In this document: in pieces, positions 124 to 28,890 of the stretch
Layout of the letters: every line of letters starts with the position of its first letter
How positions within the stretch are numbered: the stretch's first letter is position 1
DNA from: an uncultured bacterium
GTDB lineage: Bacteria > Patescibacteriota > Minisyncoccia > Phycocordibacterales > DATDWN01
Assembly: GCA_903861205.1 (NCBI GenBank)
Contig: CAIOTC010000018.1
Span: 11,800-75,799 of the forward strand
DNA length: 64,000 nt
Direction of reading: 5' to 3'
Translations under genes and position numbers: made by a program
The notes under the pieces: model-generated
What the model was told of the DNA's origin: nothing
Seen by the model: the letters and a program-made list of their open reading frames with translations, nothing else
Database searches by the model: none

Positions 124-1464
124 ATGATTTTCAGCAAAGAAAACAAAGAATATTTTAGAAAAATCGCTCCCGAACAAGATTTTTGGGTAAATAAAAACAA
201 ATATTATCATCGGTATGTGGAATCGTTTATAAATTTTATTCTTCCTGCCGATAAGCGTGTTTTTAATGTAAGGTACAATACCGACACGTTTTCTGGTTTA
301 GGCAGTTATGACTACATCGTTTTTTCTGATATTTTGGGTCATGTTTCAGATGTAGAAAAAACTCTAATCTCCTCGTCCAATATTTTAGAGTCAGACGGTC
401 ATATAATTATTACGCAATATAATTCTCTTTGGGAACCAGTATTAAAAATTGCTTCCAAGTTAGGTTTCAGGAGACCCATGATCGAACAAAACTGGCTCTC
501 TCTAATTGATCTAAAAAATTTTGCGTATATTTCTGGGTTTGATGTTGTAAGATCTGGGACTAAAATGATAATGCCGAAATATATTCCTCTTCTCTCCTTT
601 TTTTTAAATAAATATATATCAAATATTTTTCCTTTTTCAAAACTGGGTATATTTCATTATCTTGTATTAAGAAAATGTCCGCCAACTGCCGTAGCAGTAG
701 AGGCAGCAAAACCATCTCTGTCAATTATAGTGCCAGCCAGAAATGAAGTAGACACTATTAGAAAAATAATCAAAGAGTTGCCGACAATTGGTTCTTTCAC
801 AGAGATAATTTTTGTTGAAGGAAATTCTACCGATGGTACGTTACAAGAAATTAAAAAAGTTACTTCTGAATACAACAGTATTGATAATAAAAAAAATTCA
901 TCTGTTGTTTCTAAAAATATAATAAAATATTTTGTTCAAGACGGTCGTGGTAAGGGGGATGCTGTGCGTAAAGGTTTTGAAGAGGCACAAGGAGATATAT
1001 TGATGATATATGATGCCGATATGACTGTGCCTGCCAACGAAATTTATAAGTTTTATGACTGTTTGATAAGTAAAAAAGGTGATTTTATAAATGGTTCACG
1101 GTTAGTTTATCCAATGGAGAAGGAGTCAATGAGATTTCTCAATATTTTAGGCAACAAATTTTTCTCTTTTGTTTTTAGCGCCATACTCGGCCAACCGATA
1201 AAAGACACACTTTGCGGTACCAAAGTCTTGTGGAAAAAAGATTATCAGGATATTAAAAGAAACAGATCGTTTTTTGGCGACTTTGATCTGTTTGGCGACT
1301 TTGATCTCTTGTTTGGTGCCGTTAAACTCAATTTGAAAATTGTGGATATGCCAATCCATTACAAAGAGAGAAAATATGGACAGACAAACATGAATCGCTT
1401 TAGGCATGGTTGGCTCTTACTTCAAATGACTTTTTTTGCGGCTAAAAAAATAAAATTTATATGA
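124..1464 (+). CDS. Bifunctional-looking protein with an N-terminal methyltransferase-like domain fused to a GT2 glycosyltransferase (DPM1/GtrB-like)
   Basis: Residues ~195-330 carry a GT2 core (LSIIVPARNE…TDGT…DGRGKGDAVRKG…ILMIYDADMTVP, a DxD-like DAD). The N-terminal ~180 aa resembles a degenerate class-I methyltransferase fold. An internal tandem repeat FGDFDLFGDFDL lies at 1270-1320. Confidence 0.65.
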   Translation: MIFSKENKEYFRKIAPEQDFWVNKNKYYHRYVESFINFILPADKRVFNVRYNTDTFSGLGSYDYIVFSDILGHVSDVEKTLISSSNILESDGHIIITQYNSLWEPVLKIASKLGFRRPMIEQNWLSLIDLKNFAYISGFDVVRSGTKMIMPKYIPLLSFFLNKYISNIFPFSKLGIFHYLVLRKCPPTAVAVEAAKPSLSIIVPARNEVDTIRKIIKELPTIGSFTEIIFVEGNSTDGTLQEIKKVTSEYNSIDNKKNSSVVSKNIIKYFVQDGRGKGDAVRKGFEEAQGDILMIYDADMTVPANEIYKFYDCLISKKGDFINGSRLVYPMEKESMRFLNILGNKFFSFVFSAILGQPIKDTLCGTKVLWKKDYQDIKRNRSFFGDFDLFGDFDLLFGAVKLNLKIVDMPIHYKERKYGQTNMNRFRHGWLLLQMTFFAAKKIKFI

Positions 1465-1473
1465 TATGAAATA

Positions 1474-2838
1474 ATGTATACTTTATATATGTTTAATATA
1501 AAAGAAAAAATACAAAGTTTGTCAAAATGGTTCAAGATTTTTTTGGGTGTTATAGCCATCATATATTTTGCAGTGTGGTGTTTTAGTATTCACTTATCTC
1601 TGGTTCAAAAGAACATGAATATTAAACCAATTTTGCCAGTTATGTCGAAAGATAGTCAGGAATATGCCAATTTGGCGCAATCTCTGAGGTCAGGCTCGGG
1701 TTTTATCCAAAATGGGAAAATAGAAACTCTCAGAGCTCCCGGCTATCCGATCTTTGTATCAATATTCTCATCCCTTGGCGGTTATTTTGTGGCGACATTT
1801 GTCCAGATTATTTTGGTTTTTTTATCAGCGCTTTTAATCAGGGAGATAGGCATAGTTTTTTCATCAAAGAGACTGGGGGAAATAGCTGGGATTATATTTC
1901 TTTTAAACCCGGTTGTTTTGACTCTTTCTGTAATTATTTTAACAGATATTCTTTTTCTGTTTCTTTTTTTGCTTGGTTTCTATTTAACGATATCATTGCC
2001 AAAAGATAGATTTGTTCAAAAGATTATTCTTGTATCTTTCATATATTCTTGCGCAATTTATGTCAGACCAATGGGAGTTTTTGCTCTGCCGATTTTTGTT
2101 GCTCCATTTTTATTTTCAGAACTTTCTTTGCGAGATAAAGTTAAATCAATCATTGCGATGATTTTTATTGTTTTATTGGCAATTTCACCGTGGGTTTTAC
2201 GAAATTATAAATTGACAGGTGTAGCCGATTTTACTTCTTTCAAAGCCATAAACTTGGGCTATTATGCCGCTCCAATGTTTTTAGCCAACAGAAACCACAG
2301 CGATGTTGTTGCGGAGAGAGCGATTATGGAAAAAGAAATAGGTGTTTCCCAAAATCTTTGGAGGGATCTGCGATATTCTCCGGCAGTTTCAGGTTTGGCC
2401 GAGAAGATTATACTAGAACATCCTTTTTCTTATATGGAATATCATATTATTACATCTTTAACTTTTCTTTTATCTTCTTCAGTAGAATATGCTATCAATA
2501 CTTATAAATCGGCTATCGGTATTTCCGTGGGATCTAATAAGGGAGCGATGTATTATTTAGTTTCGGGAAAGTGGAATTTATTTTTTCAAAGCATTACCGC
2601 TGTTTGGTGGAAAATTTTGGAAAAAATAATCTGGGTTTCAGTGTATATTATAGCTTTGTTTGGATTTTGGAAAGAAAGGAAAAAATCTTTGGTTTGGTTG
2701 TTTTTATTCATATCTTTTTACCTGATGATTTTGTCCGGTCCAGTAGCTAACATTCGCTATTCTATTCAAGCTCTTCCATTTATACTATTTTTGTTTGTTT
2801 CTGGAATTTTTGCTATTCAAAAAAAAATTTATGTATAA
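1474..2838 (+). CDS. GT-C fold integral-membrane glycosyltransferase (ArnT/PMT-like, GT39/GT83 family)
   Basis: More than 10 predicted TM helices. An N-terminal periplasmic loop motif RAPGYPIFVS is typical of undecaprenyl/dolichyl-phosphate-sugar-dependent GT-C enzymes. Its stop overlaps the next start (ATGTATAA). Confidence 0.55.
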   Translation: MYTLYMFNIKEKIQSLSKWFKIFLGVIAIIYFAVWCFSIHLSLVQKNMNIKPILPVMSKDSQEYANLAQSLRSGSGFIQNGKIETLRAPGYPIFVSIFSSLGGYFVATFVQIILVFLSALLIREIGIVFSSKRLGEIAGIIFLLNPVVLTLSVIILTDILFLFLFLLGFYLTISLPKDRFVQKIILVSFIYSCAIYVRPMGVFALPIFVAPFLFSELSLRDKVKSIIAMIFIVLLAISPWVLRNYKLTGVADFTSFKAINLGYYAAPMFLANRNHSDVVAERAIMEKEIGVSQNLWRDLRYSPAVSGLAEKIILEHPFSYMEYHIITSLTFLLSSSVEYAINTYKSAIGISVGSNKGAMYYLVSGKWNLFFQSITAVWWKILEKIIWVSVYIIALFGFWKERKKSLVWLFLFISFYLMILSGPVANIRYSIQALPFILFLFVSGIFAIQKKIYV

Positions 2839-3544
2839 ACAGAAAAAAGTTAGCGTTGTCATATCTACATTCAATGAAGAAAAAACTATTAGGGGTGTAA
2901 TAGATAATTTTTTTGCGACCGGTGTGGTTGATGAAGTTATTGCTATAGATAACAATGCGCTTGGAAACACGAAAATTGAAATAGAAAAAACAAAAGCCAA
3001 AAGAGTGGTGGAAACAAAACAGGGCTATGGACACGGTTACATGCGTGGACTTCTGGAAGCCACAGGGGATTTGATTGTCATGACCGAAGCAGACGGGACT
3101 TTTGAGCCGGAGGATATTCACAAATTTTTGATTTACAGCGATGATTTTCCGATCGTGTTTGGTACACGCACGTCGCGAGCGGCCATCTGGTCCGGAGCTT
3201 TCATGCCTTTTTCTGTGCGGTTTGCCAACTGGCTGTGGGCCAAAGCGGTAGAAGTTTTATATAACGGTCCGGTTTTGACGGACGTCGGGTGCACCTACAA
3301 ATTGCTCGATAGACGATCTCTCGAGCACATAAAAAAATATTTTCATTTGTCGAAAGGCGACGGCACATTTTCGCCGGAGTTGATGATTTGGCTTTTGAGC
3401 AAAGAAAAAAGAATTATCGAAATTCCCGTCATGTATAAACCGCGCATCGGCAGATCCGGCTACACCGGAAGTGTCTGGAAAGCGGCACGGCTTGGTTTCA
3501 AAATGTTGCCGGTAATAATAAAATACAAGTTTAAAAAAATATGA
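2831..3544 (+). CDS. GT2 polyprenyl-phosphate sugar synthase (DPM1/GtrB-like)
   Basis: KVSVVISTFNEE…AIDNNALGNT…GYGHGYMRGL…TEADGTF is a classic GT2 N-terminal fold with a DAD/EAD motif. The start ATG at 2831 overlaps the upstream stop, and the ORF-track start at 2795 is probably an over-extension. It is paired with the upstream GT-C enzyme, the usual donor-synthase/transferase arrangement. Confidence 0.7.
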   Translation: MYKQKKVSVVISTFNEEKTIRGVIDNFFATGVVDEVIAIDNNALGNTKIEIEKTKAKRVVETKQGYGHGYMRGLLEATGDLIVMTEADGTFEPEDIHKFLIYSDDFPIVFGTRTSRAAIWSGAFMPFSVRFANWLWAKAVEVLYNGPVLTDVGCTYKLLDRRSLEHIKKYFHLSKGDGTFSPELMIWLLSKEKRIIEIPVMYKPRIGRSGYTGSVWKAARLGFKMLPVIIKYKFKKI

Positions 3545-4194
3545 CTCAAGACACATATTATGCTACCAGGTATGTTTTTGATTCGAACAGAACTGTTGTC
3601 TGGAAAGAGATCGTCAAATTTTTACAAAAGTATGTTCAGGCCGGCGAAACAGTTTTGGACTTGGGTGCCGGATATTGTGATTTTATTAATAACATTGAAG
3701 CGGAAAAAAAATACGCCGTTGATGTTTCTCCGGAATTGGAAAAATATGCTGGTGAAAATGTTAAAAAAATAAATTCTCCGGCTTGGGATTTGTCGCTTGT
3801 CCAAGATGGTTCGGTCGATGTTGTTTTTGCCAGCAACTTGCTCGAGCATTTGGCGGACGACGAATTGCAGAAAACGATGAAAGAAATAACTCGTGTTTTG
3901 AAACCAAAAGGCAAACTTATTTTAATGCAACCGAATTATCGCTTGTCGAAAAAACATTATTTTGACGATCCTACTCACAAGAAAATTTTCGATGACATTT
4001 CTTTGCGGGATTTTCTTTTATTGCATGGTTTTAAAATATTGCTGAAGATGCCTCGCTTTTTACCTCTCTCTATGCGTTCAAATTCTTCGCTTGTTCCGAA
4101 CTTTCTTCTGCCAATTATTGTTCGCTTTTATATTCATTCACCCATAAAACCTTTCGCCGGCCAAATGCTTTTTGTGACGGAAATTAAAAAATAG
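3541..4194 (+). CDS. Class I SAM-dependent methyltransferase (Methyltransf_11/25-like)
   Basis: It has a glycine-rich motif I (VLDLGAGYCDF), an acidic motif II (DVVFASNLLEHL) and a post-II motif (VLKPKGKLIL). Confidence 0.7.
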   Translation: MTQDTYYATRYVFDSNRTVVWKEIVKFLQKYVQAGETVLDLGAGYCDFINNIEAEKKYAVDVSPELEKYAGENVKKINSPAWDLSLVQDGSVDVVFASNLLEHLADDELQKTMKEITRVLKPKGKLILMQPNYRLSKKHYFDDPTHKKIFDDISLRDFLLLHGFKILLKMPRFLPLSMRSNSSLVPNFLLPIIVRFYIHSPIKPFAGQMLFVTEIKK

Positions 4195-4199
4195 AAAAA

Positions 4200-4225
4200 G
4201 ACTCGTCCGTTTGCACGAACGAGTC
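4200..4225. terminator. Bidirectional hairpin between two convergent genes
   Basis: The sequence gactcgtccgtttgcacgaacgagtc forms an inverted repeat between the converging genes at 3541-4194 (+) and 4230-4817 (-). Confidence 0.4.
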
Positions 4226-4229
4226 CTGG

Positions 4230-4817
4230 TTACTTGGCGACCGGCTGGTGAATTTTTGTCGCCCATCGAGCCATGTATTCCGGTCCTCGCCAGGCGAGAT
4301 ACCAGAAAAACGGAGTTGGCGCGGCTTGGAACAGGAGTGCTGTCCAGGCGTGTCGGTATGACCTCATTGGGCTTTCCCAGTCAATTGTAAGTCCCAAAGG
4401 CACTGAGCAAATCCGGATGTCGGATTGTGGAAAGAACGTCCGCCAGACGATTCGACACCGTCTGGAATGGGCTTCGTCCGTGACAACTATGATGGTTGTG
4501 GGAATGAACGAAAGAGAGTTTTTGATTTTGACGCACTCTTCAATCGTTGTCATTACATTACCAACATACCCTGATCTGGGCAGCTTTTCTTTCAGGTAAA
4601 GTTCTGCCGCTGGATTTGGGGAAGCTGTGAAAGTTCCAAACCGACAAATTGCTAATGGATATTTCCCCAATAATCTGCGGGTTTGGTTTGTTGCGGCGTA
4701 TGCGCTAAGCGTAGGATGTGTTTTGGTCGCTCCGTGAGCAACAGGAACAACTAAATCTGCTTCAGCGGGCAAATTGTCATTGACTGCCCACAACTTCGCT
4801 AGCCATTTAATGGGCAT
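4230..4817 (-). CDS. DUF218 (YdcF/ElyC/SanA-like) family protein
   Basis: IIVVTDEAHSRRCRIVW matches the conserved DUF218 core (vvVTs.yHm.Ra). Local GC is higher than in the flanking genes. Confidence 0.55.
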   Translation of the reverse strand: MPIKWLAKLWAVNDNLPAEADLVVPVAHGATKTHPTLSAYAATNQTRRLLGKYPLAICRFGTFTASPNPAAELYLKEKLPRSGYVGNVMTTIEECVKIKNSLSFIPTTIIVVTDEAHSRRCRIVWRTFFPQSDIRICSVPLGLTIDWESPMRSYRHAWTALLFQAAPTPFFWYLAWRGPEYMARWATKIHQPVAK

Positions 4818-4904
4818 TAGACACCTCTCTTTCTATTATGTCATAAGCAGCTGGAAAAAGCAAGTCTATTTAAAATGTGCCTATTTTGCTAATATTTTAA
4901 ACAC

Positions 4905-6593
4905 ATGATTCAAAACAGCATCAAATGGTCTCAAAAGCATGAATGGTTTATCGTTTTGGTTTTGCTTTTGACTTTCATCCTTATACGTTTGCCCGGAGTG
5001 AATTCTCCGCTTCATCAGGACGAATACAAATGGCCGGTTATCGTAAATCCGGCCACTGCAAATGGTGTGGAAATTCCTCATCCACCGATCGGAGAATTTA
5101 TTTACCGGACAGCCGGAGAAATTATCGGATTCAATGTTCACTTTCGCTTCGTCCCACTTTTTTTTGGTGCGATCAATTTGCTTATGCTGTACTATTTTCT
5201 GCGAATGAATTTTGGCAGACTCGTAGCAATAATCGGCGCGACGCTTTTTACCTTGTCGTATTTTTCCATTCTGGCTTCGCTGATGGTTGATACTGACGGA
5301 CAGATAATTCCTTTCTTTTTTCTATTAGCTTTGATTGGTTACGGAAAATCTCAAATTTCATCCGGCAAAAAAAGAATATCTTGGCTCGTGCTTTTGGCAG
5401 TGGCATCAATCCTGGGTTTTTTTGTCAAAGTCAGTTTTGCTCTGGTTATTTGCGCTATTACTGCGGATTGGCTATGGGGTAAAAAATCACAAATGACCAA
5501 AAAAGATGTTTTGGAATATTTAGGGTATGGTTTTGGTGGGATTCTAATTTTAATCATTCTTCTTTTTCTTTCTCAATATGTTTTTAATTTTTTTAATTTA
5601 TCCAAAGCGCTTGCTTACTGGGAACATTTCGCCAATTTAAACAGAAATTGGTTTCAGACGGGCATACAGGTGGTTAAAGCAATTTTATATACCTCGCCAT
5701 TTATCTTGTTTGTTCCATTTTTCTTGTCTAAAGAAGATATAAAAAAAATCAGACCATTCCTACTATATATTATTTTTGGAATGATTTTTTATACGATTCT
5801 TTTTGACTTTTCCATTGGTGCACTTGATAGGTATTTGCAGTTTTTAATTATTCCACTTTGTGCGATATCGGCAGTAGTGATTGTGTCCGTGATGCAATCG
5901 GGTGATAATAAGAGAAATAGAGAATATATTTTTCTTGGTACAATTTTTGCTTTGATTTTATTTATGACAGTTTTTGTTCCTCATTTTGTACCATCACTTC
6001 AACCAAAATCAGCCTGGATTTCTCGGGCATTAAGTTTGAAATGGAATTTTCTTTATCCGTTTTTCGGCGGTTCTGGACCTCTTGGATTTTATGTTTCTTT
6101 TTTGTTCATGGCTTTATCGTGGATTGTATCTGTTATTTTAATTGCAATCGGACTTATAAAACCACATTTGAGAAAAATGGTTATTCTTATTTTAATACCA
6201 ATCGGTTTGGCTTATAACCTGACATTTACCGAGGAATATCTCTTTGGTAAAATAAATGGATCAGCTCCAAAACTTTTGAATGGAGCTGTAGAATTTATTA
6301 AAAATGACCAAGTTATAAAATCTGTCATAGTTTACAATGATAATGGTGGAAATGAAATTCAAAATATTGGCAAATATAAAAGACGTTTGTATCTTGATCC
6401 AATGTTTTTTGGACAGATAGATTATATGAATCAAAATAAAGGATTTTATTTTGTTTTGGATGTTCCTCGAATTGATCCGGAAAGTCTCTATGTTAAATAT
6501 TTCAATTCTTGTAAGATAGTGTATAAAGAGATAGATAAAAAAATGTCGGCAACGATTTACGATTGTAAAAATGTGCCGGATGTAAAAAGTTAA
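4905..6593 (+). CDS. Polytopic membrane protein, probably a GT-C glycosyltransferase (ArnT/PMT-like) with a C-terminal soluble domain
   Basis: It has ~12 TM helices, an early periplasmic loop containing HQDEYKW and a PPIGEF motif. This is the same architecture as the protein at 1474-2838. Confidence 0.45.
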   Translation: MIQNSIKWSQKHEWFIVLVLLLTFILIRLPGVNSPLHQDEYKWPVIVNPATANGVEIPHPPIGEFIYRTAGEIIGFNVHFRFVPLFFGAINLLMLYYFLRMNFGRLVAIIGATLFTLSYFSILASLMVDTDGQIIPFFFLLALIGYGKSQISSGKKRISWLVLLAVASILGFFVKVSFALVICAITADWLWGKKSQMTKKDVLEYLGYGFGGILILIILLFLSQYVFNFFNLSKALAYWEHFANLNRNWFQTGIQVVKAILYTSPFILFVPFFLSKEDIKKIRPFLLYIIFGMIFYTILFDFSIGALDRYLQFLIIPLCAISAVVIVSVMQSGDNKRNREYIFLGTIFALILFMTVFVPHFVPSLQPKSAWISRALSLKWNFLYPFFGGSGPLGFYVSFLFMALSWIVSVILIAIGLIKPHLRKMVILILIPIGLAYNLTFTEEYLFGKINGSAPKLLNGAVEFIKNDQVIKSVIVYNDNGGNEIQNIGKYKRRLYLDPMFFGQIDYMNQNKGFYFVLDVPRIDPESLYVKYFNSCKIVYKEIDKKMSATIYDCKNVPDVKS

Positions 6594-6594
6594 A

Positions 6595-7185
6595 ATGAAA
6601 TACAAACAATTTATAGATCAAAAAATCAGAGACATAAGCAAGGGGAAAGTGATATTGGATGTTGGCGGGGGAGATCCTTTTACCAAATGGTTAGCTTCAT
6701 ATAAAAATTTTTTTGCTGATTGTGATTATCGCACTATGGATTATGACATCTCAACAGGGGCTGACGTTATAGGAGACATTCATAAAATTCCTTTAGCTGA
6801 TAATAGTGTGGATGGAATAATATGCAGTTCGGTATTGGAGCATGTCAGTAATCCTATTCTGGCCACGCAAGAAATAAAAAGGATACTAAAACCAAACGGT
6901 AAACTGTTTGTTTATGTTCCTTCCATTTATCCATATCACGCCAAAAAAGGGCATTATCCCGATATGTGGAGATTTTTTGATGATTCTATCGATATGCTTT
7001 TCCAAGATTTTTCTTCTGTTGAAATATGTAAATTCGGTGGATATTTTAGAGCCATGTTCTTTTTTGTGCCGATGCAACATAAATTACAGTTTATTTTAAA
7101 ACCACTGTCAGGTTTTTTAGATAATCTTTTTAAGACTGAAAAAAGGAGTACTACTGCCGGATATTATATTTATGCTATTAAATAA
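6595..7185 (+). CDS. Class I SAM-dependent methyltransferase (type 11)
   Basis: Motifs ILDVGGGDPF, VDGIICSSVLEHV and ILKPNGKLFVYVP are present. Confidence 0.7.
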   Translation: MKYKQFIDQKIRDISKGKVILDVGGGDPFTKWLASYKNFFADCDYRTMDYDISTGADVIGDIHKIPLADNSVDGIICSSVLEHVSNPILATQEIKRILKPNGKLFVYVPSIYPYHAKKGHYPDMWRFFDDSIDMLFQDFSSVEICKFGGYFRAMFFFVPMQHKLQFILKPLSGFLDNLFKTEKRSTTAGYYIYAIK

Positions 7186-7186
7186 A

Positions 7187-8251: not shown

Positions 8252-8254
8252 TTT

Positions 8255-9079: not shown

Positions 9080-9099
9080 CATTATTTTTTAGTAAAAAT

Positions 9100-11260: not shown

Positions 11261-11270
11261 ATTATCTATT

Positions 11271-16440: not shown

Positions 16441-16441
16441 A

Positions 16442-17848: not shown

Positions 17849-17868
17849 TATTTTTATTCTCGACAGGA

Positions 17869-18636: not shown

Positions 18637-18637
18637 A

Positions 18638-19711: not shown

Positions 19712-19714
19712 GTT

Positions 19715-20935: not shown

Positions 20936-21936
20936 AATTCAAGAGACATATTAAGTATTCCCGCAAAATTGTTTCTTTCTATTTCTATCAGATTTTTATT
21001 TAACCATTTCTCCAGAGTTTTAATCGTACTTTCAAGACTGTATTTGGGTTTCCAGTCAAAATCTTTTTCAAAGGATTTTGATGTAATCTGGAGATTTCGC
21101 ATATCACCCACATCACTTTGAGAGACTATCCTGCACTTTACCACTTTCTGCACAGCTTCACCAAATTGTTTTTTTGAGAAGTTGTGTTTACCAATATTAT
21201 ATATCAGACGAGGCCATTTATCTTTTTTCATAATTGCAAAATAGCCACTGGTTATGTCTCGAATATCCACGGCTGCTCTAAATGCATTCAGTTCTGAAAT
21301 TCTGATAAGACCTTGGGACACGGCACAATAGGTAAAATGGTTTGGCAGGAGTTCTATTCGCATTCTGGGGGATATTCCGCAAACAGTTGCGGGACGAAGT
21401 ATGATGATTCTAAATTTTGGATTTTTCTTAACTTTATTTTTGATATAGGATTCCATTTGCAATTTGTATTTGCAGTAGTTATCGGTTGACTTTGGCAGGG
21501 GATCATTTTCACCCATGAGTTTCATTTCTTTTTGATTGCCATAAAGACTGGATGTTGAATTATAAATAATCGGAATTTCCAGCTTTTCTGCCAAGTCAAT
21601 AACCCTTTTTGAGGCCTCATAATTTAAATCTCTTGTATAATTTGGGTTATGATTGCAAGCCCAGACACTGGAAAGTTCGGCAAAATGGAAAAGAAAATCC
21701 GGTTTGAAATCTTCCAACGTTTTTTTGAGCAGTTCAAGATTTCTAGTATCTCCAATGACATATTGCAATTCAGACTTAGAGTTTTTCCCAGTTTCTATTT
21801 CTTTGATTATTTTTTTGTAATCCTGCTCGTATATAAGAGAGTCATATAACATAACAGAAAGACCTTTTGTCAACGCTTCTTTGGCTAGTTGTGAGCCAAT
21901 ATAACCCAATCCTCCGGTAATAAAGATTTTTTGCAT
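20893..21936 (-). CDS. NAD(P)-dependent nucleotide-sugar epimerase/reductase (extended SDR)
   Basis: It has the Rossmann motif IFITGGLGYIGSQLAKE and YxxxK (YCKYK). Confidence 0.7.
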   Translation of the reverse strand: MQKIFITGGLGYIGSQLAKEALTKGLSVMLYDSLIYEQDYKKIIKEIETGKNSKSELQYVIGDTRNLELLKKTLEDFKPDFLFHFAELSSVWACNHNPNYTRDLNYEASKRVIDLAEKLEIPIIYNSTSSLYGNQKEMKLMGENDPLPKSTDNYCKYKLQMESYIKNKVKKNPKFRIIILRPATVCGISPRMRIELLPNHFTYCAVSQGLIRISELNAFRAAVDIRDITSGYFAIMKKDKWPRLIYNIGKHNFSKKQFGEAVQKVVKCRIVSQSDVGDMRNLQITSKSFEKDFDWKPKYSLESTIKTLEKWLNKNLIEIERNNFAGILNMSLELWTKLSRQEPGPLK

Positions 21937-21969
21937 ACACCTAAAACTATCATAATTTTATGGGTATGT

Positions 21970-23001
21970 CTATAATTGTTCTTTTGCCCACTCCATATTA
22001 TTTTTAAGTCCTTTTGAAAATGGCGTAAATTTTAATTTCTTCATTTCTTTTTTTATTTTACTGAGATTTAGTCTGACTATTTTTGGATCTTTTCCTATAT
22101 AAGCCAACTTTGAAATATTTGCCGGAATTTCGTATTTTACATTGCATAATCTGGCAATTTTTTTTGCCAGGTTCAAAATGGAAAGACTGTCTTTTCCCCC
22201 GACGTTGTAGACGAAATCTTTTCCATAAAAAGCGATAAAAAGAATCATGGCTACGCTGTCGGCGATGTATCCATAAGTCCTGGTTGATTTTCCGCCATCA
22301 AGCAACTTGATATTTTTTTCCACCAAGGCTTTTTTTATGAACTCGCTCAAGACCCGTTTGTCGTCAAGCGGAAGTCCTGGTCCATAAGTAACAGAAATCC
22401 TGACAATTTTTATGTTTGATCCTTTATCTCTTTTATAAGCTGCACAAAGAGCTTCTCCCAAACGCTTTGATTCAGCGTAAACGGATCTTGGCAAATGCAG
22501 TGGGGAATTGCCGTTATAGTTTTCTTTGACCGGAATAAACTCCTGCGGTATATCTCCATAAACTTCGGCGGAGCTGAAAAAAATAAAGGTGGCATTTGGA
22601 GACATATCCAAGAGTCTTTGGGTCGCATCAATATTTATTTTTGTTGTTCCGTTATAATCATTGACGAACTTAGCCGGTTGGCTGTATCCGGCAGAATGAA
22701 AAATATAATCGTACCCCTTCAGATCAAAAGATTTAGTCAAGTCAACACGATGATAAAAAATATTTTTGTGTTCTTTCAAAATGGAAGAAAGGATTTCTTT
22801 TGGAGCGTTCAAACCGGTGGCCTCAATCGTATTGCCGAGATTCATTTCATGATTGGCCAGAGAAAGGGCGGCAGTAATGTGCTGACCGAGGAAGCCGTTT
22901 GCTCCGGTAACAAGGATTTTTTTTCCTTTGATTTTTCCGAGATTAACTTGACTTAAAATTTTTCGACAATCATTTTCTATTATTTTGTTCATCATTTTCA
23001 A
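21970..23001 (-). CDS. NAD(P)-dependent nucleotide-sugar epimerase/dehydratase (extended SDR)
   Basis: It has the Rossmann motif ILVTGANGFLGQHI and YAESKRLGE (YxxxK). Confidence 0.7.
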   Translation of the reverse strand: MKMMNKIIENDCRKILSQVNLGKIKGKKILVTGANGFLGQHITAALSLANHEMNLGNTIEATGLNAPKEILSSILKEHKNIFYHRVDLTKSFDLKGYDYIFHSAGYSQPAKFVNDYNGTTKINIDATQRLLDMSPNATFIFFSSAEVYGDIPQEFIPVKENYNGNSPLHLPRSVYAESKRLGEALCAAYKRDKGSNIKIVRISVTYGPGLPLDDKRVLSEFIKKALVEKNIKLLDGGKSTRTYGYIADSVAMILFIAFYGKDFVYNVGGKDSLSILNLAKKIARLCNVKYEIPANISKLAYIGKDPKIVRLNLSKIKKEMKKLKFTPFSKGLKNNMEWAKEQL

Positions 23002-24823
23002 TTATTTTGGTTTTCTCGCCACCCGGCAGAGGCGGATTTTCCCATCCTTCTATGGGGTTTATTGTCATGTTTTTGTAAAATTCATCGCGAGGAAGGTATG
23101 GATACATATCTTCTATCGGGGTGTTCCAACCAAAAACTCTTGGTTCGTACTTGTACCATTCCCCGCAGTTCACATCACAGACGATCGGTCCGTCATGTGC
23201 CAAAACTTCACCCACTATTTTTTTCACATCGTCGATCTTGTCAATTTTTTTGGTGGTAACGCCATAAGCGCCGGAAATTTTGACGAAGTCCGGAGCGACA
23301 TACCCTTTTGGTCCCGATGCTTCGTGACGTCCTTCAACATTCGTGTCTTGGAACGCCTTAATTATTCCATAAACATGATTGTTTAAAATGAACGTTTTCA
23401 CTTTGATGCCGTATGTTATCAATGTTTGCAATTCTTGGATGTTCATATTGAATCCGCCGTCTCCGATTATGCAAACCACCGAACCCTTTTTGTCCGAGGC
23501 AAACCACGCGCCGATGGCTCCGCAAAAAGAAAAACCCATGGGCGAATTGCCGTTGTTTGAAAAATATCTTTGGCCGTTTTTTGTTTCAAAAGCATGGTTG
23601 CTGATGACTATATTTCCTCCGCAATCTGTCACCAGAATATCATCTGGTTTCATCTCTTGCGAAAGCATTCTGACGAAAGCGTAAGGGTTGACATTTTCTT
23701 TCTGGGTAAAATATTCCGGCTTGACGGGATCGTAAATATTTTTCCATTCCAAAACTTGCTTTGTCCATTTAGACACATCCGGCAAGTTTGTTCCAAAAAG
23801 CTTGTTTCCCAAACGTTCCAAGAACATTTTAGCGTCGCAGTATATGCTGACATCAAACGGCACCTGTTGAAGTTTTTTCTGCAAAAGGGCTGGATCCACA
23901 TCAACCACATATTTTTTGGCTTCTCTGGCGAATGTTTTTAAATTTCCTCCGGTGATTCGACCCGATATTCGACTTCCGACCGCAATCAGCAAATCGCTAT
24001 TTTGAATGCCAAAATTTCTTCCTCGCCCGCCGTATGTTCCGACATTTCCGCCGTAAAATTCATAATCAGCCGGAACAATATCAAGGGCGTTCCAAGTCGG
24101 GAAAACCGGAATTCTGAGAAGTCTTCCCACTTTTTGCAACATATCGGTTGCTCCGGCGGTTCTGACACCTCCACCAACAAGCATGACCGGCCGTTTTGCC
24201 GTTTGCAAATCTTTCAGGAGCTGGTTTATTTTGGCATCAACGATTTTTATGTCAAACAACGCGCGTTTTGTTTGGCTGTCAAAACCGACAAGTGTATTCG
24301 GGTCTATTTCAGCTTTCTGCAAGTTTTGGGGAATATCCAAAAGAACCGGTCCGGGCCTGCCGTCAGTGGCCAAAAACCAAGCCTTTTCAATTTCGTATTT
24401 TATATCTTCCGCTTTGGTAATAAGTTTTGAATATTTTGTAATAGGGGAAGTTATAGCCACAATGTCAGTTTCTTGAAAACCAACCTGCCTTATGTCATTG
24501 TCTTGACGCAAGAATTCTGAATTAATCTGTCCGGTTATAAAAATGGCAGGTACAGAGTCATAAAAACAGTTTCCGATAGAAGTGACGAGATTCATACCCC
24601 CGGGCCCGCTGGTGGCTATGGCCACTCCCGGTATGCCTTTTATTTTAGCATATCCTTCAGCTGCAAAACCGGCCGCCTGTTCGTGCATAGTGGCAACATA
24701 CTCAGCTTTGTCCGTTCTTGTAAAAGCGTCAATAATGTAGGCATTGGCGGCTCCCGATACAACAAACATTTTGTCGACCCCTTTATCGGCAAGGAAATTC
24801 ACGACAAAATCAGCTAATTTCAT
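22970..24823 (-). CDS. Thiamine-diphosphate-dependent enzyme of the acetolactate-synthase large-subunit family, a candidate YerE-like sugar C-branching enzyme
   Basis: It has all three TPP-enzyme domains (N-terminal Pyr, central and C-terminal PP with the GDGG motif IIGDGGFNMN). Its genomic context, next to the 3-dehydratase and SDRs, suggests a role in branched-chain deoxysugar synthesis. Confidence 0.7.
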   Translation of the reverse strand: MKLADFVVNFLADKGVDKMFVVSGAANAYIIDAFTRTDKAEYVATMHEQAAGFAAEGYAKIKGIPGVAIATSGPGGMNLVTSIGNCFYDSVPAIFITGQINSEFLRQDNDIRQVGFQETDIVAITSPITKYSKLITKAEDIKYEIEKAWFLATDGRPGPVLLDIPQNLQKAEIDPNTLVGFDSQTKRALFDIKIVDAKINQLLKDLQTAKRPVMLVGGGVRTAGATDMLQKVGRLLRIPVFPTWNALDIVPADYEFYGGNVGTYGGRGRNFGIQNSDLLIAVGSRISGRITGGNLKTFAREAKKYVVDVDPALLQKKLQQVPFDVSIYCDAKMFLERLGNKLFGTNLPDVSKWTKQVLEWKNIYDPVKPEYFTQKENVNPYAFVRMLSQEMKPDDILVTDCGGNIVISNHAFETKNGQRYFSNNGNSPMGFSFCGAIGAWFASDKKGSVVCIIGDGGFNMNIQELQTLITYGIKVKTFILNNHVYGIIKAFQDTNVEGRHEASGPKGYVAPDFVKISGAYGVTTKKIDKIDDVKKIVGEVLAHDGPIVCDVNCGEWYKYEPRVFGWNTPIEDMYPYLPRDEFYKNMTINPIEGWENPPLPGGEKTKIIENDEQNNRK

Positions 24824-24854
24824 GGATTTGAGTGTTATTTTATAACATCAATCA

Positions 24855-26036
24855 TTATGCATTTTCAGTTGCATTATGCAACCTTTGACACCCTTCCAAT
24901 AAATTTTTTGCGGTATTGGCATAACACATGCGAACATAATTTTTTCCTCCTTCGCCGAACCCTGAACCCGGGCAGAGGACAACGCCGTGATTTTCCATGG
25001 CATGTTTTGCAAATCCATCTCCATTCATGCCGGTTTTGGAAACGTCAATCATAATATAAAACGCTCCGTCCGGTTTTGAAAATTCAATCTTTTTGATTTT
25101 TTTAAGTTCAGAACAGACGATCTCGCGTAATTTTTTGTATTCTGTAAAATATCGTTTGACAAATTTTTTTCTATCAGTCAGAGCCGTAATGCAAGCATCT
25201 TGCAAAAAAGGCGGAACACACGAGATTATTGTTTGGGACAGAAGAGCTATTTTATTGATAATATCTTCCGGACCGATTGCGTATCCGACTCGCCACCCAG
25301 TCATGGCAAATGGTTTTGAAAAACCGTTTGTGACAATGACTCTTTCAAGACAATGATCTATTGTTCCGGCCGAAAAATGAGCTCCTTCATATATAAGCTG
25401 TGAATAAATTTCGTCGCTTAAAATGTACAAGTTGTGTTTTTTTGCTATCTTATAGATTTCAACAATATCTTTCTTTGAATAAACCGCTCCGGTTGGATTT
25501 GACGGCGAGTTGATTACTATAAGGCGCGTTTTTGAAGTAATTTTTTTTTCTATTTCTTTCGGATCAAAACGAAAATTATTTTTATGATTTACTTTAACCC
25601 TGACATCTTTGATTTTGAGCATATTCATAACAGCGTTATATGTCACGAATGATGGATCGGTCAGAATCACTTCCTCTCCGGGGTTTACAAGTATGGAAAT
25701 AACATAATAAATAAGCGGATTTGCTCCTGATGTAACAACAATCTGGGGCAGTGAAGGTTTAAAACCAAAATCTTCCTTTACGGCTTTCTGGATTGCCAAA
25801 CGCAAGGAGTGTTCTCCAAATGAACTGCCATAATGAGTATGGTTAGATTTCATCGCCAAAGATGCGCTTTTCTTTACTTCCGGTGGCATTTCCAGATGCG
25901 AGTCGCCTATTTCAAAGTGAATTAAATGTTTGCCGTTGCGCTCCAATTCTTTAGCTTTGTCCAAAATAGCAAACATGGATTGACCAACTATTCTTTCTCC
26001 AAAATCTGAAAATGTATGATGATTTAATTTATTCAT
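24855..26036 (-). CDS. Class I/II PLP-dependent aminotransferase (AspAT-like)
   Basis: The length and motifs fit aminotransferase fold type I (GxxNP…, SKPFAMTGWRVGYA with Lys in the SKxF context, NPTG). Confidence 0.7.
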   Translation of the reverse strand: MNKLNHHTFSDFGERIVGQSMFAILDKAKELERNGKHLIHFEIGDSHLEMPPEVKKSASLAMKSNHTHYGSSFGEHSLRLAIQKAVKEDFGFKPSLPQIVVTSGANPLIYYVISILVNPGEEVILTDPSFVTYNAVMNMLKIKDVRVKVNHKNNFRFDPKEIEKKITSKTRLIVINSPSNPTGAVYSKKDIVEIYKIAKKHNLYILSDEIYSQLIYEGAHFSAGTIDHCLERVIVTNGFSKPFAMTGWRVGYAIGPEDIINKIALLSQTIISCVPPFLQDACITALTDRKKFVKRYFTEYKKLREIVCSELKKIKKIEFSKPDGAFYIMIDVSKTGMNGDGFAKHAMENHGVVLCPGSGFGEGGKNYVRMCYANTAKNLLEGCQRLHNATENA

Positions 26037-26769
26037 ATTTTATGAAAATTACATCTCCATCAGTCGGTTGTCCGGTTTTTTTGTCGATAAGGCCGTAACT
26101 TTTATGCAATCTGTAACCAAATTGTTCCAAAAATTTTTTTATATCACTAAATAATGGCTGATTTTTGTACACTTCCATATACATCACTTCTGTATAGATC
26201 AGGTCAATTTTTTTGTTCGATAGCATTTTTTCGGTTCCTTGCAACACCAAAAGTTCACCACCCTGGACATCCATTTTCAAAATATTTATTCTTTCTATTT
26301 TATTTTTTTCACAATAGCTATCAAGCGTTTCCGTATTGACTTCAATCTTTCCCATTTTTTGAAAAGCATCTTTTCCTTTTGTAAATTCTTCGTTATTTTG
26401 TAGCAGTGAATTGCAACCATGAAAACTGTTGACAAAAAATTCTGCCGTTCCATTTTGATTTGAAAGAGCAATATTGACGCAATGAACCTTCTTGTCTCCA
26501 TGAACGGACTCTACATATTCCCCAAACATTCTGGGAAACGGTTCAAATCCATGAATGGAAGCCTTCGGAAACATTTTTCTGTATTTATGTGTTGTTTGTC
26601 CGGCATTTGCTCCAACGTCAAAAATTATACCGGCCGGCGCGGAAGCGAATAATTTTTTTTGTTCCAAATAATCTTCACTCAATTTTATTTTAAGTACGCT
26701 TAAATCATACCCAAAATATTTTCTTACAATATATTTGACTAGGTTTTTAGCTTTCTGCCAAGATTTCAT
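26029..26769 (-). CDS. FkbM-family SAM methyltransferase
   Basis: IFDVGANAGQTT…GFEPFP…NGTAEF is the FkbM signature. Confidence 0.7.
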   Translation of the reverse strand: MKSWQKAKNLVKYIVRKYFGYDLSVLKIKLSEDYLEQKKLFASAPAGIIFDVGANAGQTTHKYRKMFPKASIHGFEPFPRMFGEYVESVHGDKKVHCVNIALSNQNGTAEFFVNSFHGCNSLLQNNEEFTKGKDAFQKMGKIEVNTETLDSYCEKNKIERINILKMDVQGGELLVLQGTEKMLSNKKIDLIYTEVMYMEVYKNQPLFSDIKKFLEQFGYRLHKSYGLIDKKTGQPTDGDVIFIKYE

Positions 26770-26775
26770 GTAAGT

Positions 26776-28047
26776 TTATTGAAGTTTCTCCGTTTTATAG
26801 TCAAGTATTGTGGATATTTTTCCCCAAAATGACGATCCGAATAATAATTCTCTGGGATTTTTTTCATTAGTTATAACCATACTGATATCATTGATGGTAT
26901 CTATACTTTTTTTACCATCGCTCAAATGCTTTAGCCAAATAGTGATAGATATCATACCAATTTGGAATAGAAAAGCCGGTACTTCCACACGAACTTTGTA
27001 TTTTCCCGGTTCATAATTTCTATATGTTCCGGTACCGTCTCCTTCGGTAGATAATAATATAAATTCACCTTGATAGTAAAAATACAGAAAAATCATTTTA
27101 TTCTCAATATATTTTCTGATATCAAGCTCAATTTCAATAAAAAACTTTTCCCCAACGGGTATCTGAGCTTTTGGGGCATTTTCTTGATTTAATATACTAA
27201 CTTTTGTGATTTGACCGTCAAGTTCATTTTTTATTGGATATTCCGTTACGGCATTCAAAGTTCTGTCAACATTCAAATAATAATTTATTACCTCTGAAGT
27301 TTCTCCAAATTTTACAATTTCTCCTTTTTTCAAAAGAATTGTTTTTGTGCATAATCTTTCCACCGCATCCATGTTATGACTTACGAAAATAATAGTTCGC
27401 CCCTCTTTTCTGGTGATATCTTCCATTTTTCCCAAGCATTTTTTTTGAAACTCCACATCGCCAACCGCGAGCACTTCATCTATTATTAAAATATCCGGTT
27501 CCATATGAGCGGCCACGGAAAAAGCCAAGCGGACGTACATTCCGCTGGAATAATATTTGACCGGAGTGTCCAGAAATTTATCAATTTCGGCAAATTTTAC
27601 AATCTGATCAAATTTTTTGGCAATTTCTTTTTGAGTCATTCCGAGAATTGCGCCGTTTAAAAAAATATTTTCCCGACCGGTCAGCTCCGGATGAAAACCG
27701 GTACCAACTTCAAGCAAACTTCCCACACGGCCCATTATTTTTATTTCACCTGTCGTAGGCGGAGTTATTTGCGAAAGGATTTTCAGCAGAGTCGACTTTC
27801 CGGCCCCATTGCCGCCGATAATGCCGATAATTTCTCCTTTTTTAACTTCAAAATCAATATCTTTTAAGGCCCAAAAATCTTCTCTGGTTTCAAGACCGGC
27901 CACTTGTTTTACTTTTGTTTTTAAAAAGGAAAAAGGAGATTTGATGGCGTTCATTAAAACGTCGCGCAGGGCAACATAACTTCCACGCTGATGGGTGATG
28001 TTATATTTTTTTCCTATCCCTTTGATTGTTATGATTGGTTTTTCCAT
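26776..28047 (-). CDS. wzt: ABC transporter ATP-binding protein of the polysaccharide-export type (Wzt/TagH-like) with a C-terminal extension
   Basis: The N-terminal ABC ATPase has Walker A (GIIGGNGAGKST), the signature YSSGM and Walker B (ILIIDE). An additional ~170-aa C-terminal domain is consistent with a glycan-terminus-binding domain. Confidence 0.8.
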   Translation of the reverse strand: MEKPIITIKGIGKKYNITHQRGSYVALRDVLMNAIKSPFSFLKTKVKQVAGLETREDFWALKDIDFEVKKGEIIGIIGGNGAGKSTLLKILSQITPPTTGEIKIMGRVGSLLEVGTGFHPELTGRENIFLNGAILGMTQKEIAKKFDQIVKFAEIDKFLDTPVKYYSSGMYVRLAFSVAAHMEPDILIIDEVLAVGDVEFQKKCLGKMEDITRKEGRTIIFVSHNMDAVERLCTKTILLKKGEIVKFGETSEVINYYLNVDRTLNAVTEYPIKNELDGQITKVSILNQENAPKAQIPVGEKFFIEIELDIRKYIENKMIFLYFYYQGEFILLSTEGDGTGTYRNYEPGKYKVRVEVPAFLFQIGMISITIWLKHLSDGKKSIDTINDISMVITNEKNPRELLFGSSFWGKISTILDYKTEKLQ

Positions 28048-28053
28048 AATGGT

Positions 28054-28890
28054 TTATACTATATCCGCAAAATATCTTTCTGTTTTTTTGAAAACATAAA
28101 CGCCCAAAATCATAATGATGAATGTGGCGACGAAAGAAATCAAAATCAAGAACCAATTAATCGGCGCTGTTCCTAGCAAGGATGCTCTGGCGTTTTGGAT
28201 TACTCCCATCATTGGATTGAGAGCAAGGATTTTTGAATATTTTCCGGCAATTGAAGCGGGGTAGATAACCGGTGTCAAAAATAACATAATTTGAATAAAA
28301 AAAGGAAGAACATACCTGACATCTCGATATTTAACATTTATAGAAGCCAGAACAAGTCCCATGCCGATAGAAGCCATAAAAGTGATAAGAAGAAGCAGGG
28401 GTAAAATCCAAAGTCCTGAAATATGTGGCATGTATCCATAATAAAACATCAGACCAACTAATATTATGGAGGCAATTAGAAAATCTATAAATTTTGTTGC
28501 CACAGATGATATGGGTAAAATCAATCTGGGAAAATAAACTTTAGTGATTATGGCTTGATTGCTTAACAAAGCGTTGCTGGTGTCTGCCAGGGCACTTGAA
28601 AAAAATTGCCAAAATAAAAGACCAACATAAACAAAAATGGGGTAGGGAACCCCATCTGATGGCATTTTAGCCAATCCGCCAAAAAAAACAGAGAAAACCA
28701 CCATTGTAATAAATGGTTGGAAAATAGCCCAAGCCACACCTATCATCGTCTGTTTATAACGGACTTTGAGGTCACGCCAAACGAAGAAATACATAAGTTC
28801 TTTATATTTCCAAAGCTCGGTAATATCACGAAAAGAAAAAAGCTTTTTGGGCCGTATAATAGTCTCTTTTGTGGCGACAGAAGAATTCAT
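28054..28890 (-). CDS. wzm: ABC-2 type polysaccharide export permease (Wzm-like)
   Basis: It has 6 TM helices, is ABC2-membrane-like, and lies immediately upstream of the ATPase in the same operon. Confidence 0.75.
   Translation of the reverse strand: MNSSVATKETIIRPKKLFSFRDITELWKYKELMYFFVWRDLKVRYKQTMIGVAWAIFQPFITMVVFSVFFGGLAKMPSDGVPYPIFVYVGLLFWQFFSSALADTSNALLSNQAIITKVYFPRLILPISSVATKFIDFLIASIILVGLMFYYGYMPHISGLWILPLLLLITFMASIGMGLVLASINVKYRDVRYVLPFFIQIMLFLTPVIYPASIAGKYSKILALNPMMGVIQNARASLLGTAPINWFLILISFVATFIIMILGVYVFKKTERYFADIV

Follow-up and report, generated by a model that had tools for sequence, protein, structure and literature searches.

Organization of the island and related loci

The 64-kb stretch of DNA analyzed here (positions 1-64000, hereafter the window) contains an island of genes for a putative methylated surface glycan, together with the Wzm/Wzt ABC transporter that would export it. 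In the range 124-28890, which an earlier note on this DNA had considered, the open reading frame (ORF) map and Pfam/NCBIfam scans, the latter covering 30 ORFs, resolve 26 close-packed genes with junctions of -44 to +87 nt (Table 1), and the ORFs listed in that note were recovered with the same boundaries. The functional island is larger, about 35 kb (~124-35268), since genes for a B12-binding radical S-adenosylmethionine (SAM) enzyme, a GDP-L-fucose synthase-like (Fcl-like) short-chain dehydrogenase/reductase (SDR), GMD (GDP-mannose 4,6-dehydratase), a Wzy_C protein with a TPR domain, and SecA are located just past position 28890.

The genes of 124-28890 form two convergent blocks. The plus-strand block (124-10236) starts with a methyltransferase (MT) remnant fused to a GT2 glycosyltransferase (GT), followed by GT-C, GT2, Methyltransf_11, a short minus-strand ORF, GT-C, Methyltransf_11, GT4, Methyltransf_23 and GT4. 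The minus-strand operon runs from 28890 down to 10226. Its first half encodes Wzm, Wzt with a C-terminal carbohydrate-binding domain (CBD), an FkbM-type MT, a class-I aminotransferase, a thiamine diphosphate (ThDP) enzyme, two SDRs and a DegT-family enzyme; the second half encodes GT10, GT2, DUF5672+FkbM, an MT fold with GT11, a MycE/TylE-like MT, GT17+GT11, an SDR and GT2. The GC content is strongly uneven across the window, being 26-37% in the island genes, 42-49% in housekeeping genes and 52% in a giant ORF described below; the same low-GC contrast with the rest of the genome is seen for S-layer glycan (slg) and O-antigen clusters (PMC2943079). The short minus-strand ORF (4230-4817, 195 aa), with 49% GC inside a plus-strand operon of 33-37% GC and only weak similarity to DUF218 (E 6e-4), could have been acquired separately, or it might not be a gene.

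Judged by protein similarity, the window belongs to an ultra-small bacterium of the Patescibacteria (Paceibacterota/Parcubacteria) and, as it also encodes Obg, GatB and DsbB, to the chromosome. The nearest relatives of Wzt, Wzm, the Wzy_C protein and SecA are all from Patescibacteria. In particular, the Wzt homologues (58-79% identical, all of ~420 aa) come, where the source is named, nearly all from Paceibacterota, Zambryskibacteria, Taylorbacteria, Vogelbacteria or "Patescibacteria group" metagenome-assembled genomes, Wzm is 72-84% identical to Patescibacteria Wzm, and SecA 60-69% identical to SecA of Parcubacteria loci. Genes identical to those of the window are also present in ENA samples ERZ18626762, ERZ27313102 and ERZ1426681. 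Neither tRNA genes nor Rfam families were found in the 64-kb window.

Table 1. Genes of the island, with predicted products and best matches (E, expect value).
Positions	Strand	Product	Matches and features
124-1464	+	Degenerate class-I MT remnant (residues ~38-198) + AglJ/DPM1-like GT2	GT2 E 5.6e-19; AglJ E 4e-29
1474-2838	+	GT-C membrane GT, PMT_2-like	PMT_2 E 5e-4, 20.7 bits, below cut-off; ~10 transmembrane-like segments
2795-3544	+	GT2, AglJ/dolichyl-phosphate-hexose-transferase-like	Pfam GT2 E 9e-14; AglJ E 2e-19
3541-4194	+	Class-I SAM MT, Methyltransf_11	E 2.9e-14; motif VLDLGAG
4905-6593	+	GT-C membrane GT, PMT_2	PMT_2 E 1.2e-9, 39 bits, above cut-off; ~11 hydrophobic segments
6595-7185	+	Class-I SAM MT, Methyltransf_11	E 6.6e-14; motif ILDVGGG
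7172-8251	+	GT4	Glycos_transf_1 E 6.8e-39
8255-9079	+	Class-I SAM MT, Methyltransf_23	E 8.7e-18; motif IIEIGCAPG
9100-10236	+	GT4	Glyco_trans_1_4 E 2.2e-16
10226-11260	-	GT2, last gene of the minus-strand operon	GT2 E 4.3e-34
11271-12197	-	SDR nucleotide-sugar epimerase/dehydratase	Epimerase E 3.7e-55; GalE/LegB/TviC-like
12182-13858	-	GT17-like + GT11 fusion	GT17 E 1.2e-21 (residues 2-257); GT11 E 5.6e-32 (273-557)
13855-14613	-	MycE/TylE-type deoxysugar O-methyltransferase	PDB 3ssm E 2.1e-36 (MycE), 8ia9 E 5.4e-34 (TylE); motif ILEIGIQNG
14638-16440	-	Divergent FkbM-like MT fold (1-232) + GT11 (235-521) + basic amphipathic C-tail	GT11 E 1.8e-12
16442-17848	-	DUF5672 + FkbM MT fusion	DUF5672 E 7.9e-25; FkbM E 4.9e-19; TIGR01444 E 4.6e-24; motif IFEIGAADG
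17869-18636	-	GT2	E 3.6e-28
18638-19711	-	GT10 (fucosyltransferase family)	Glyco_transf_10 E 2.6e-13
19715-20935	-	ColD-type pyridoxal/pyridoxamine phosphate (PLP/PMP) sugar 3-dehydratase (DegT-family)	ColD 2gms E 3.6e-58 vs E1 3bcx E 3e-42; RfbH E 4.9e-63
20893-21936	-	SDR nucleotide-sugar dehydratase/epimerase	Epimerase E 2.8e-29; weak GalE/CDP-glucose-4,6-dehydratase similarity
21970-23001	-	SDR reductase/epimerase, third cassette gene	Epimerase E 1.4e-38
22970-24823	-	YerE-like ThDP carboligase (database label acetolactate-synthase-like)	PDB 8rph E 5.9e-96, 5ahk E 2e-84
24855-26036	-	Class I/II aminotransferase, cassette member	Aminotran_1_2 E 1.8e-64
26029-26769	-	Stand-alone FkbM MT directly downstream of wzt	FkbM E 1.8e-27; motif IFDVGANAG
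26776-28047	-	Wzt: ABC nucleotide-binding domain (NBD) + C-terminal CBD (residues ~260-423)	ABC_tran PF00005 E 9.4e-23
28054-28890	-	Wzm ABC-2 permease	ABC2_membrane PF01061 E 4.9e-16
29037-30989	+	B12-binding radical-SAM C-methyltransferase, KedN5 family	NF033712 E 7.5e-87; Radical_SAM + B12-binding
31036-31989	-	GDP-L-fucose synthase-like (Fcl/ColC-type) SDR	NF047922 E 6.9e-79, below cut-off
32008-33072	-	GMD	GDP_Man_Dehyd E 2.2e-153
33097-35268	+	Wzy_C (O-antigen-ligase/O-oligosaccharyltransferase family) + C-terminal TPR	Wzy_C PF04932 E 1.8e-20; TPR_19 E 1.2e-13

The island was compared with 86 retrieved loci (labelled L001 etc.) by searching the ORFs of all six frames with our own profiles. 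As the window itself served as the seed of these profiles, the MT counts are too low for distant loci. The backbone SecA–Wzy_C/TPR–Wzm–Wzt, often followed by an MT, recurs in Patescibacteria loci, where GMD and Fcl are often present as well. Wzy_C/TPR is found beside wzm in 20 of 41 Patescibacteria loci versus none of 27 others. The genes downstream of wzt are almost wholly different between loci, and such variable content is the pattern of a serotype-like variable locus.

The MT density of the island, previously described as exceptional, is indeed at the top of the range, with 2.8 domains per 10 kb, where the 41 Patescibacteria loci have a median of 1.2, but it is not unique, since L002 has 3.3 MT domains per 10 kb and the same maximum as the window (7 in 21 kb). 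Within 10 kb of wzt, L002 encodes FkbM, GT11, FkbM, FkbM, GT10, MT, GT2+DUF268, MT and GT11. Another Patescibacteria island, L087, has six MT-type genes in 21.8 kb, its content including a GT2+MT fusion, FkbM, DUF268, an MT, a B12-binding radical-SAM enzyme and a CmcI-type MT. The difference in MT density between the candidate phyla radiation (CPR) and non-CPR loci (p = 0.045) is not relied on, due to the origin of the profiles.

Exporter, ligase and a possible acceptor

Genes wzm and wzt are encoded together, separated by 6 nt, in agreement with the ABC-transporter-dependent glycan pathway proposed earlier. The closest solved relative of Wzt is the CBD-bearing Wzt of Aquifex aeolicus (PDB 8dku, E 4.7e-68), and all 69 retrieved Wzt proteins with complete C-termini have 405-442 aa. 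The C-terminal extension of Wzt had been taken for a carbohydrate-binding domain, and structural modelling agrees with this. The AlphaFold model of residues 260-423, built with 72 homologues, is all-β (pLDDT 89), and in the Foldseek comparison with PDB the best 14 matches, and 17 of the 18 top ones, are Wzt CBDs or full-length Wzt (E ≥1.5e-7, TM-score up to 0.77). The top match, 8dky, is the CBD of A. aeolicus Wzt in complex with 3-O-methyl-mannose (E 1.5e-7, TM-score 0.76), followed by 6o14 (apo), 5hno (O12 CBD) and 2r5o (O9a CBD). According to the model, the C-terminus of Wzt is thus a Wzt-type carbohydrate-binding β-sandwich. Export of terminated chains has been described as gated by the carbohydrate-binding module (CBM) of Wzt (PMC11231755).

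The Wzy_C/TPR protein has 11 transmembrane-like segments and, in its combination of Wzy_C with a C-terminal TPR, the architecture of the O-oligosaccharyltransferases WsfB and PglL (PMC2943079). It resembles these enzymes and is considered here a putative ligase/O-oligosaccharyltransferase. In the 744-nt gap between its gene and secA, an AT-rich palindromic element of ~95 nt is present in two copies (within 35275-35770), which form direct repeats 83-86% identical to each other and have inverted arms of 44-52 nt; a perfect 21-nt hairpin (35595-35640) is located between both copies.

No S-layer gene was found in the window. A giant ORF of 4377 aa (47859-60992), 12 kb from the Wzy_C/TPR gene, has an HTH_17-like N-terminus, one transmembrane segment at about residues 123-150, and then ~4200 residues that are 40% Gly/Thr/Ser and end in a Ser/Thr/Pro-rich tail. 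Neither a Pfam domain nor a PDB relative was found for it. It may be a surface protein and a target of O-glycosylation, and we treat it as a candidate only. Its N-terminus is the sole HTH_17-like sequence in the window; HTH_17 proteins of 82 aa are encoded upstream of wzm in L002 (8902-9150, immediately upstream) and in L001 (478-726, ~3.4 kb upstream). A gene for an IS200-like Y1 transposase (61004-61666, PF01797 E 2e-9) starts 11 nt past the giant ORF.

Methyltransferases, glycosyltransferases and sugar supply

There are eight MT-like domains in 124-28890: six canonical, one divergent and one degenerate. The earlier note had counted at least nine; the ninth MT, the B12-binding radical-SAM enzyme, is encoded outside this range, divergently from wzm. 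The six canonical domains (3541-4194, 6595-7185, 8255-9079, 13855-14613, the C-domain of 16442-17848, and 26029-26769) all have a glycine-rich motif I. Four MTs had been assigned to type 11/12 or the TylF-like type, and Pfam confirms the first three as MTs (Methyltransf_11 twice and Methyltransf_23); the product of 13855-14613, whose Pfam match (Methyltransf_24) is under the cut-off, is TylE-like rather than TylF-like. Four further domains had been assigned to the FkbM type, and this assignment stands for 16442-17848 and 26029-26769, applies to 14638-16440 only in the sense of a divergent FkbM-like domain, and fails for the N-domain of 124-1464. For DUF5672, the partner of FkbM in 16442-17848, no PDB sequence match and no informative literature were found.

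The N-domain of 14638-16440 has no Pfam/NCBIfam match at E <= 0.01, PF05050/TIGR01444 not being reached, and its motif I is atypical (EIGAFEA, of the form EIGAxE/D, vs DVGAxxG in FkbM). Still, it scores 27.5 bits over both motif regions with an FkbM profile built from the related loci, profile iteration begun from it converges on FkbM domains, and the top-50 PDB fold matches of its AlphaFold model (pLDDT 88.4) are all class-I SAM MTs. The fusion has at least 28 full-length homologues, in which the motifs EIGA, DYLxxDIEP and TxETD are invariant. On these profile and model data, we regard the domain as divergent, FkbM-like and probably active. The proposed FkbM+GT11 fusion is therefore upheld in its GT11 part by Pfam and in its MT fold by the model, while Pfam/NCBIfam do not recognize the FkbM family in it.

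The fusion of an MT with GT2 in 124-1464 is also real, with the MT part being a degenerate remnant. Its Methyltransf_23 match spans only profile positions 73-162, and motif I is gone: a deletion of ~47 residues removes the SAM loop VLExGCGxG, retained by most homologues (470-500 aa). The same loss is seen in one other cluster representative, P0361 (437 aa), and the domain looks like a conserved pseudo-methyltransferase domain. The enzyme of 29037-30989 may C-methylate a sugar, which is suspected because a similar gene directly follows the ThDP cassette in L087.

GT domains in 124-28890 number 12 (DUF5672 excluded), slightly more than the approximately ten proposed. The HMM domain annotation upheld the GT11, GT10 and GT17 assignments, and Pfam confirmed the GT17+GT11 and DUF5672+FkbM fusions, the former being common in metagenomes. 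Orthologues of the GT10 enzyme, 43-46% identical, are present in L001 and L012. The AglJ matches of both plus-strand GT2 genes fall below the equivalog cut-offs, and no GtrA-like flippase gene accompanies these two AglJ/DPM-like GT2 and the two PMT_2 GT-C genes. By family membership, the four genes fit extracytoplasmic sugar addition, and the plus-strand operon may thus add sugars from polyprenyl-phosphate donors.

The glycan had been predicted to be fucosylated. This is supported by GT10 and GT11 and by the supply genes just outside the studied range, where GMD (72-76% identical in L001, L005, L006 and L049) and the Fcl-like SDR would yield GDP-L-fucose, while the chemistry probably goes beyond fucose. 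The DegT-family protein (19715-20935) has a His-His pair (YAGHHMST) that aligns with YSHHIAT of ColD, the first His being Asn in the variant chain 3b8x. We take this position to be the site of the catalytic Lys in aminotransferases, and since it is occupied by His-His, the protein is assigned as a 3-dehydratase and not as an aminotransferase. It would produce GDP-4-keto-3,6-dideoxyhexose, so that GMD, the Fcl/ColC-like SDR and the ColD-type dehydratase together would give a route to a colitose-type 3,6-dideoxyhexose besides fucose.

The ThDP enzyme is closer to 8rph and 5ahk than to true acetolactate synthases (≤3.7e-78); 5ahk is the YerE homologue of P. protegens. The alignment with 8rph carries the CDG motif, reported for the YerE-like enzyme JanthE (PMC12247030). 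YerE-like enzymes put acyl branches on 4-keto-3,6-dideoxy sugars, and reductases or transaminases can modify these branches (PMC9306805). The enzyme is 64-82% identical across many metagenomes and is co-located with the aminotransferase in L084-L087: the order aminotransferase–ThDP–SDR is repeated in L087, and L086, from a 6.5-Mb genome, has the same three genes as ThDP–SDR–aminotransferase, clustered with GT10 and GT11. The SDR of 21970-23001 would have a YerF-like role. The combination of a ColD-type dehydratase with this cassette suggests a branched 3,6-dideoxyhexose: the GDP-4-keto-3,6-dideoxyhexose may either be reduced to a colitose-like sugar or receive an acyl branch from the YerE-like enzyme, to be processed further by the SDR and the aminotransferase. 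Neither a cytidylyltransferase nor an E3 reductase of the canonical CDP-glucose route was found in the window, and it is plausible that the acyl-branched sugar is made on GDP- rather than CDP-linked intermediates. A phosphonate pathway, considered for the pair of a ThDP decarboxylase and an aminotransferase, was rejected, as there is no PEP mutase and the ThDP enzyme is of the full-length acetolactate synthase/YerE type.

Proposed pathway, alternatives and known systems

With a probability of about 0.6, we consider ~124-35268 to be the variable surface-glycan locus of this lineage, which builds, methylates, caps, exports and attaches a fucose/deoxy-sugar glycan. From the gene families, fusions, CBD fold, ColD-type active-site histidines, taxonomic placement and synteny, we infer its sugars, methylation sites, cap, chain-terminating enzyme and acceptor as follows. 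Cytoplasmic enzymes of the families GT2, GT10, GT11, GT17 and GT4, including several two-domain fusions, would assemble the chain on a polyprenyl carrier; a phosphoglycosyltransferase whose gene lies elsewhere would start this carrier. The FkbM-, MycE/TylE- and class-I-type MTs would O-methylate its residues, with possible C-methylation by the B12 radical-SAM enzyme. A terminal modification, likeliest a methyl group from the wzt-adjacent FkbM, would mark the finished chain, to be recognized by the Wzt CBD and transported by Wzm/Wzt. Outside the membrane, the Wzy_C/TPR protein would move the glycan to its acceptor, most likely Ser/Thr/Tyr of surface proteins, which are favoured because the lineage is reported to have no lipopolysaccharide (LPS).

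For the capping step, the earlier note had proposed the fused MT-GT enzymes. The stand-alone FkbM of 26029-26769 is in our comparison the best candidate, ahead of the fusions, because it is kept beside wzt in three relatives, while the fused genes are not conserved along with Wzt and the MT of 124-1464 is degenerate. Its same-position orthologues are found in L002/L003 (51%) and L004 (55%), loci that otherwise differ. Moreover, 18 of 39 Patescibacteria loci have the start of an MT domain no more than 1.5 kb downstream of wzt. Such data suggest a possible link between the CBD and the adjacent MT.

Several observations weigh against the proposed pathway. L001, which has the most similar Wzt (79%), encodes another MT type (Methyltransf_13/23/14) after wzt. 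The MT proteins are filled by catalytic domains, leaving, by domain accounting, no room for a coiled-coil ruler. In the exporter, the Pfam Wzt_C match is below the cut-off (17.6 bits, E 0.0038), the CBD is only ~14% identical to the solved ones, so that ligand specificity is unreadable from the fold match, and the Wzt NBD also resembles TagH teichoic-acid exporters. Within the island there is no flippase for polyprenyl-phosphate sugars, no identified acceptor protein and no initiating phosphoglycosyltransferase (no Bac_transf/Glycos_transf_4 match in the scanned window ORFs). Finally, the absence of LPS genes is taken from relatives and not read from the whole genome of this organism. Because of L001, the idea that CBD similarity and the type of the adjacent MT simply vary together was rejected as well.

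WbdD-type terminators are defined by the coiled-coil ruler (PMC11231755). In the MT ORFs of the window, the longest segments without an assigned domain are a linker of ~60 aa (16442-17848) and a basic tail of ~70 aa (14638-16440), and the model of the N-domain of the latter has no long helix. Moreover, a kinase domain, as would be needed for a phosphomethyl cap, had no family match in the 30 scanned ORFs. Hence termination of the WbdD type, suggested previously, is not supported. Methyl capping, if it occurs, resembles by analogy WsaE of Geobacillus, in which an MT is fused to GTs and no length control has been demonstrated (PMC2943079).

The MTs may instead act mainly on internal residues or on nucleotide-sugar precursors, so that the glycan becomes hydrophobic and variable in its antigenicity, with the MT-GT fusions merely coupling transfer and methylation of one residue and the CBD reading a non-methyl end. 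This is a serious, though in our estimate somewhat improbable, alternative. Eight or nine MTs far exceed the needs of one cap, and the window encodes a MycE/TylE-type enzyme, a family that methylates deoxysugars other than chain ends. Caps without a methyl group, e.g. Kdo (5hno), are also bound by known CBDs, and the MT set varies among loci with Wzt 60-79% identical. On the other hand, roughly every second related locus has an MT directly after wzt, the orthologous FkbM is retained after wzt in three relatives while all else changes, and the best fold match is a CBD with a methylated sugar, though 14% identity says little on the ligand.

The acceptor could also be peptidoglycan or a membrane lipid rather than protein, if the product is a lipoglycan or a secondary polymer of the cell wall, for which Wzm/Wzt would be a TagGH-like exporter, with Wzy_C/TPR ligating it to the lipid or wall acceptor or serving another pathway. 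We consider this unlikely. The best NCBIfam matches of the Wzt NBD do include TagH/PRK13545 (E 2e-63), with PDB TarH/TagH at E 1e-56, the plus-strand GT2+GT-C pairs resemble three-component extracellular wall-polymer decoration (PMC11127046), and no acceptor protein is encoded in the island. However, window scans revealed neither an LCP (LytR-CpsA-Psr) ligase nor glycerol- or ribitol-phosphate enzymes, Wzy_C/TPR stands beside wzm in 20 of 41 related loci and matches WsfB and PglL in architecture, and the Gly/Thr/Ser-rich, membrane-anchored 4377-aa protein is a possible acceptor 12 kb away.

An LPS O-polysaccharide of a diderm, with the WbdD-type capping by the MT-GT fusions that the earlier note had considered and with a WaaL-type ligase joining the chain to lipid A-core, is highly improbable: Wzm/Wzt with a CBD, the Wzy_C family, gmd/fcl and many GTs are typical of O-antigen loci, and Wzt also has more distant relatives in Verrucomicrobia, cyanobacteria and Proteobacteria, but the closest relatives of Wzt, Wzm, Wzy_C and SecA are all Patescibacteria, a Parcubacterium genome was reported without lipid A/LPS genes, the CPR envelope being called unclear (PMC5220378), and the MT proteins have neither a kinase domain nor, by domain accounting, a segment of coiled-coil size, with the fused MT-GTs not conserved along with Wzt. 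Since the closest relatives are Patescibacteria and that genome was reported to have no LPS genes, the glycan does not fit an LPS O-antigen.

All components of the proposed surface-glycan locus belong to known families, and it follows the logic already known from ABC-dependent O-antigen and S-layer glycan pathways, with no new principle; a literature search of incomplete coverage revealed no earlier account of such a locus in CPR bacteria. The interest lies in the host lineage, in the recurrence among Patescibacteria of a conserved backbone whose accompanying genes are variable and rich in MTs, and in the ColD/YerE-like module. The island and the shared backbone predict a hydrophobic O-methylated deoxyhexose glycan, cap-gated export, and attachment by a ligase to an acceptor other than LPS. 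CPR/Patescibacteria are thought to live attached to other cells, and their surface chemistry probably governs the choice of partner and phage susceptibility. A speculative and rather doubtful extension is that Paceibacterota carry, at a fixed site by secA, a hypervariable serotype-like locus for a capped poly-methylated fucose/3,6-dideoxyhexose glycan with a GDP-built, acyl-branched YerE-type sugar, which a cap-reading Wzm/Wzt exports and a Wzy_C/TPR transferase attaches to giant Ser/Thr-rich surface proteins or pili, and that this coat is one of the chief factors in host-cell and phage recognition in these episymbionts. The FkbM-like–GT11 fusion, the GT17–GT11 fusion and the YerE-like/aminotransferase cassette are compact candidates for glyco-engineering.

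Among known systems, the Gram-positive slg route, known from Geobacillus stearothermophilus NRS 2004/3a and Paenibacillus alvei, is similar in its monoderm host, ABC-dependent lipid-linked glycan, overlapping wzm-wzt-MT/GT genes, Wzy_C O-oligosaccharyltransferase with C-terminal TPR (WsfB), and lower GC (PMC2943079). Its proposed chain capper, WsaE, is an MT fused to GT domains, which the window fusions resemble by described architecture only. In contrast to dTDP-rhamnose and a single MT-type domain there, the window has predicted sugars of GDP-derived fucose/3,6-dideoxyhexose types, GT10/GT11/GT17 and eight or nine MT-type domains, with no S-layer gene and no WsaP-type initiating enzyme in the locus, and its host is a Patescibacterium.

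Systems with CBD-gated export, namely WbdD with Wzt-CBD of E. coli O9a/K. pneumoniae O3, K. pneumoniae O12, and A. aeolicus WzmWzt (2r5o, 5hno, 8dky, 8dku), share with the window Wzm, a Wzt with a β-sandwich CBD, and an MT gene adjoining wzt. The window differs in having no kinase or coiled-coil ruler protein and only ~14% CBD identity, and no lipid A-core acceptor is expected; its terminator would be a small stand-alone FkbM.

The O-polysaccharide of R. etli CE3 has a tri-O-methyl-fucose cap. Rhizobial loci, such as that of R. tropici, combine wzm, a CBM-bearing wzt, gmd, fcl and numerous GTs in one operon, as in the window, and the O-polysaccharides, rich in fucose or 6-deoxyhexose and O-methylated or acetylated, are hydrophobic deoxyhexose glycans with methyl decoration (PMC12595478). 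These are proteobacterial LPS, however, made by other GT families (e.g. the GT-A fucosyltransferase WrtF), with no YerE/ColD module reported.

The pathways of colitose (ColD) and of yersiniose/erwiniose (YerE, ErwE, JanthE) have in common with the window the His-His 3-dehydratase, the YerE-like ThDP enzyme and an adjacent SDR similar to YerF (PMC12247030, PMC9306805). The window cassette has no cytidylyltransferase or E3 counterpart and includes a class-I aminotransferase; while the known YerE substrates are CDP-4-keto-3,6-dideoxyglucose, the window dehydratase is nearer to the GDP-specific ColD, and GMD is present.

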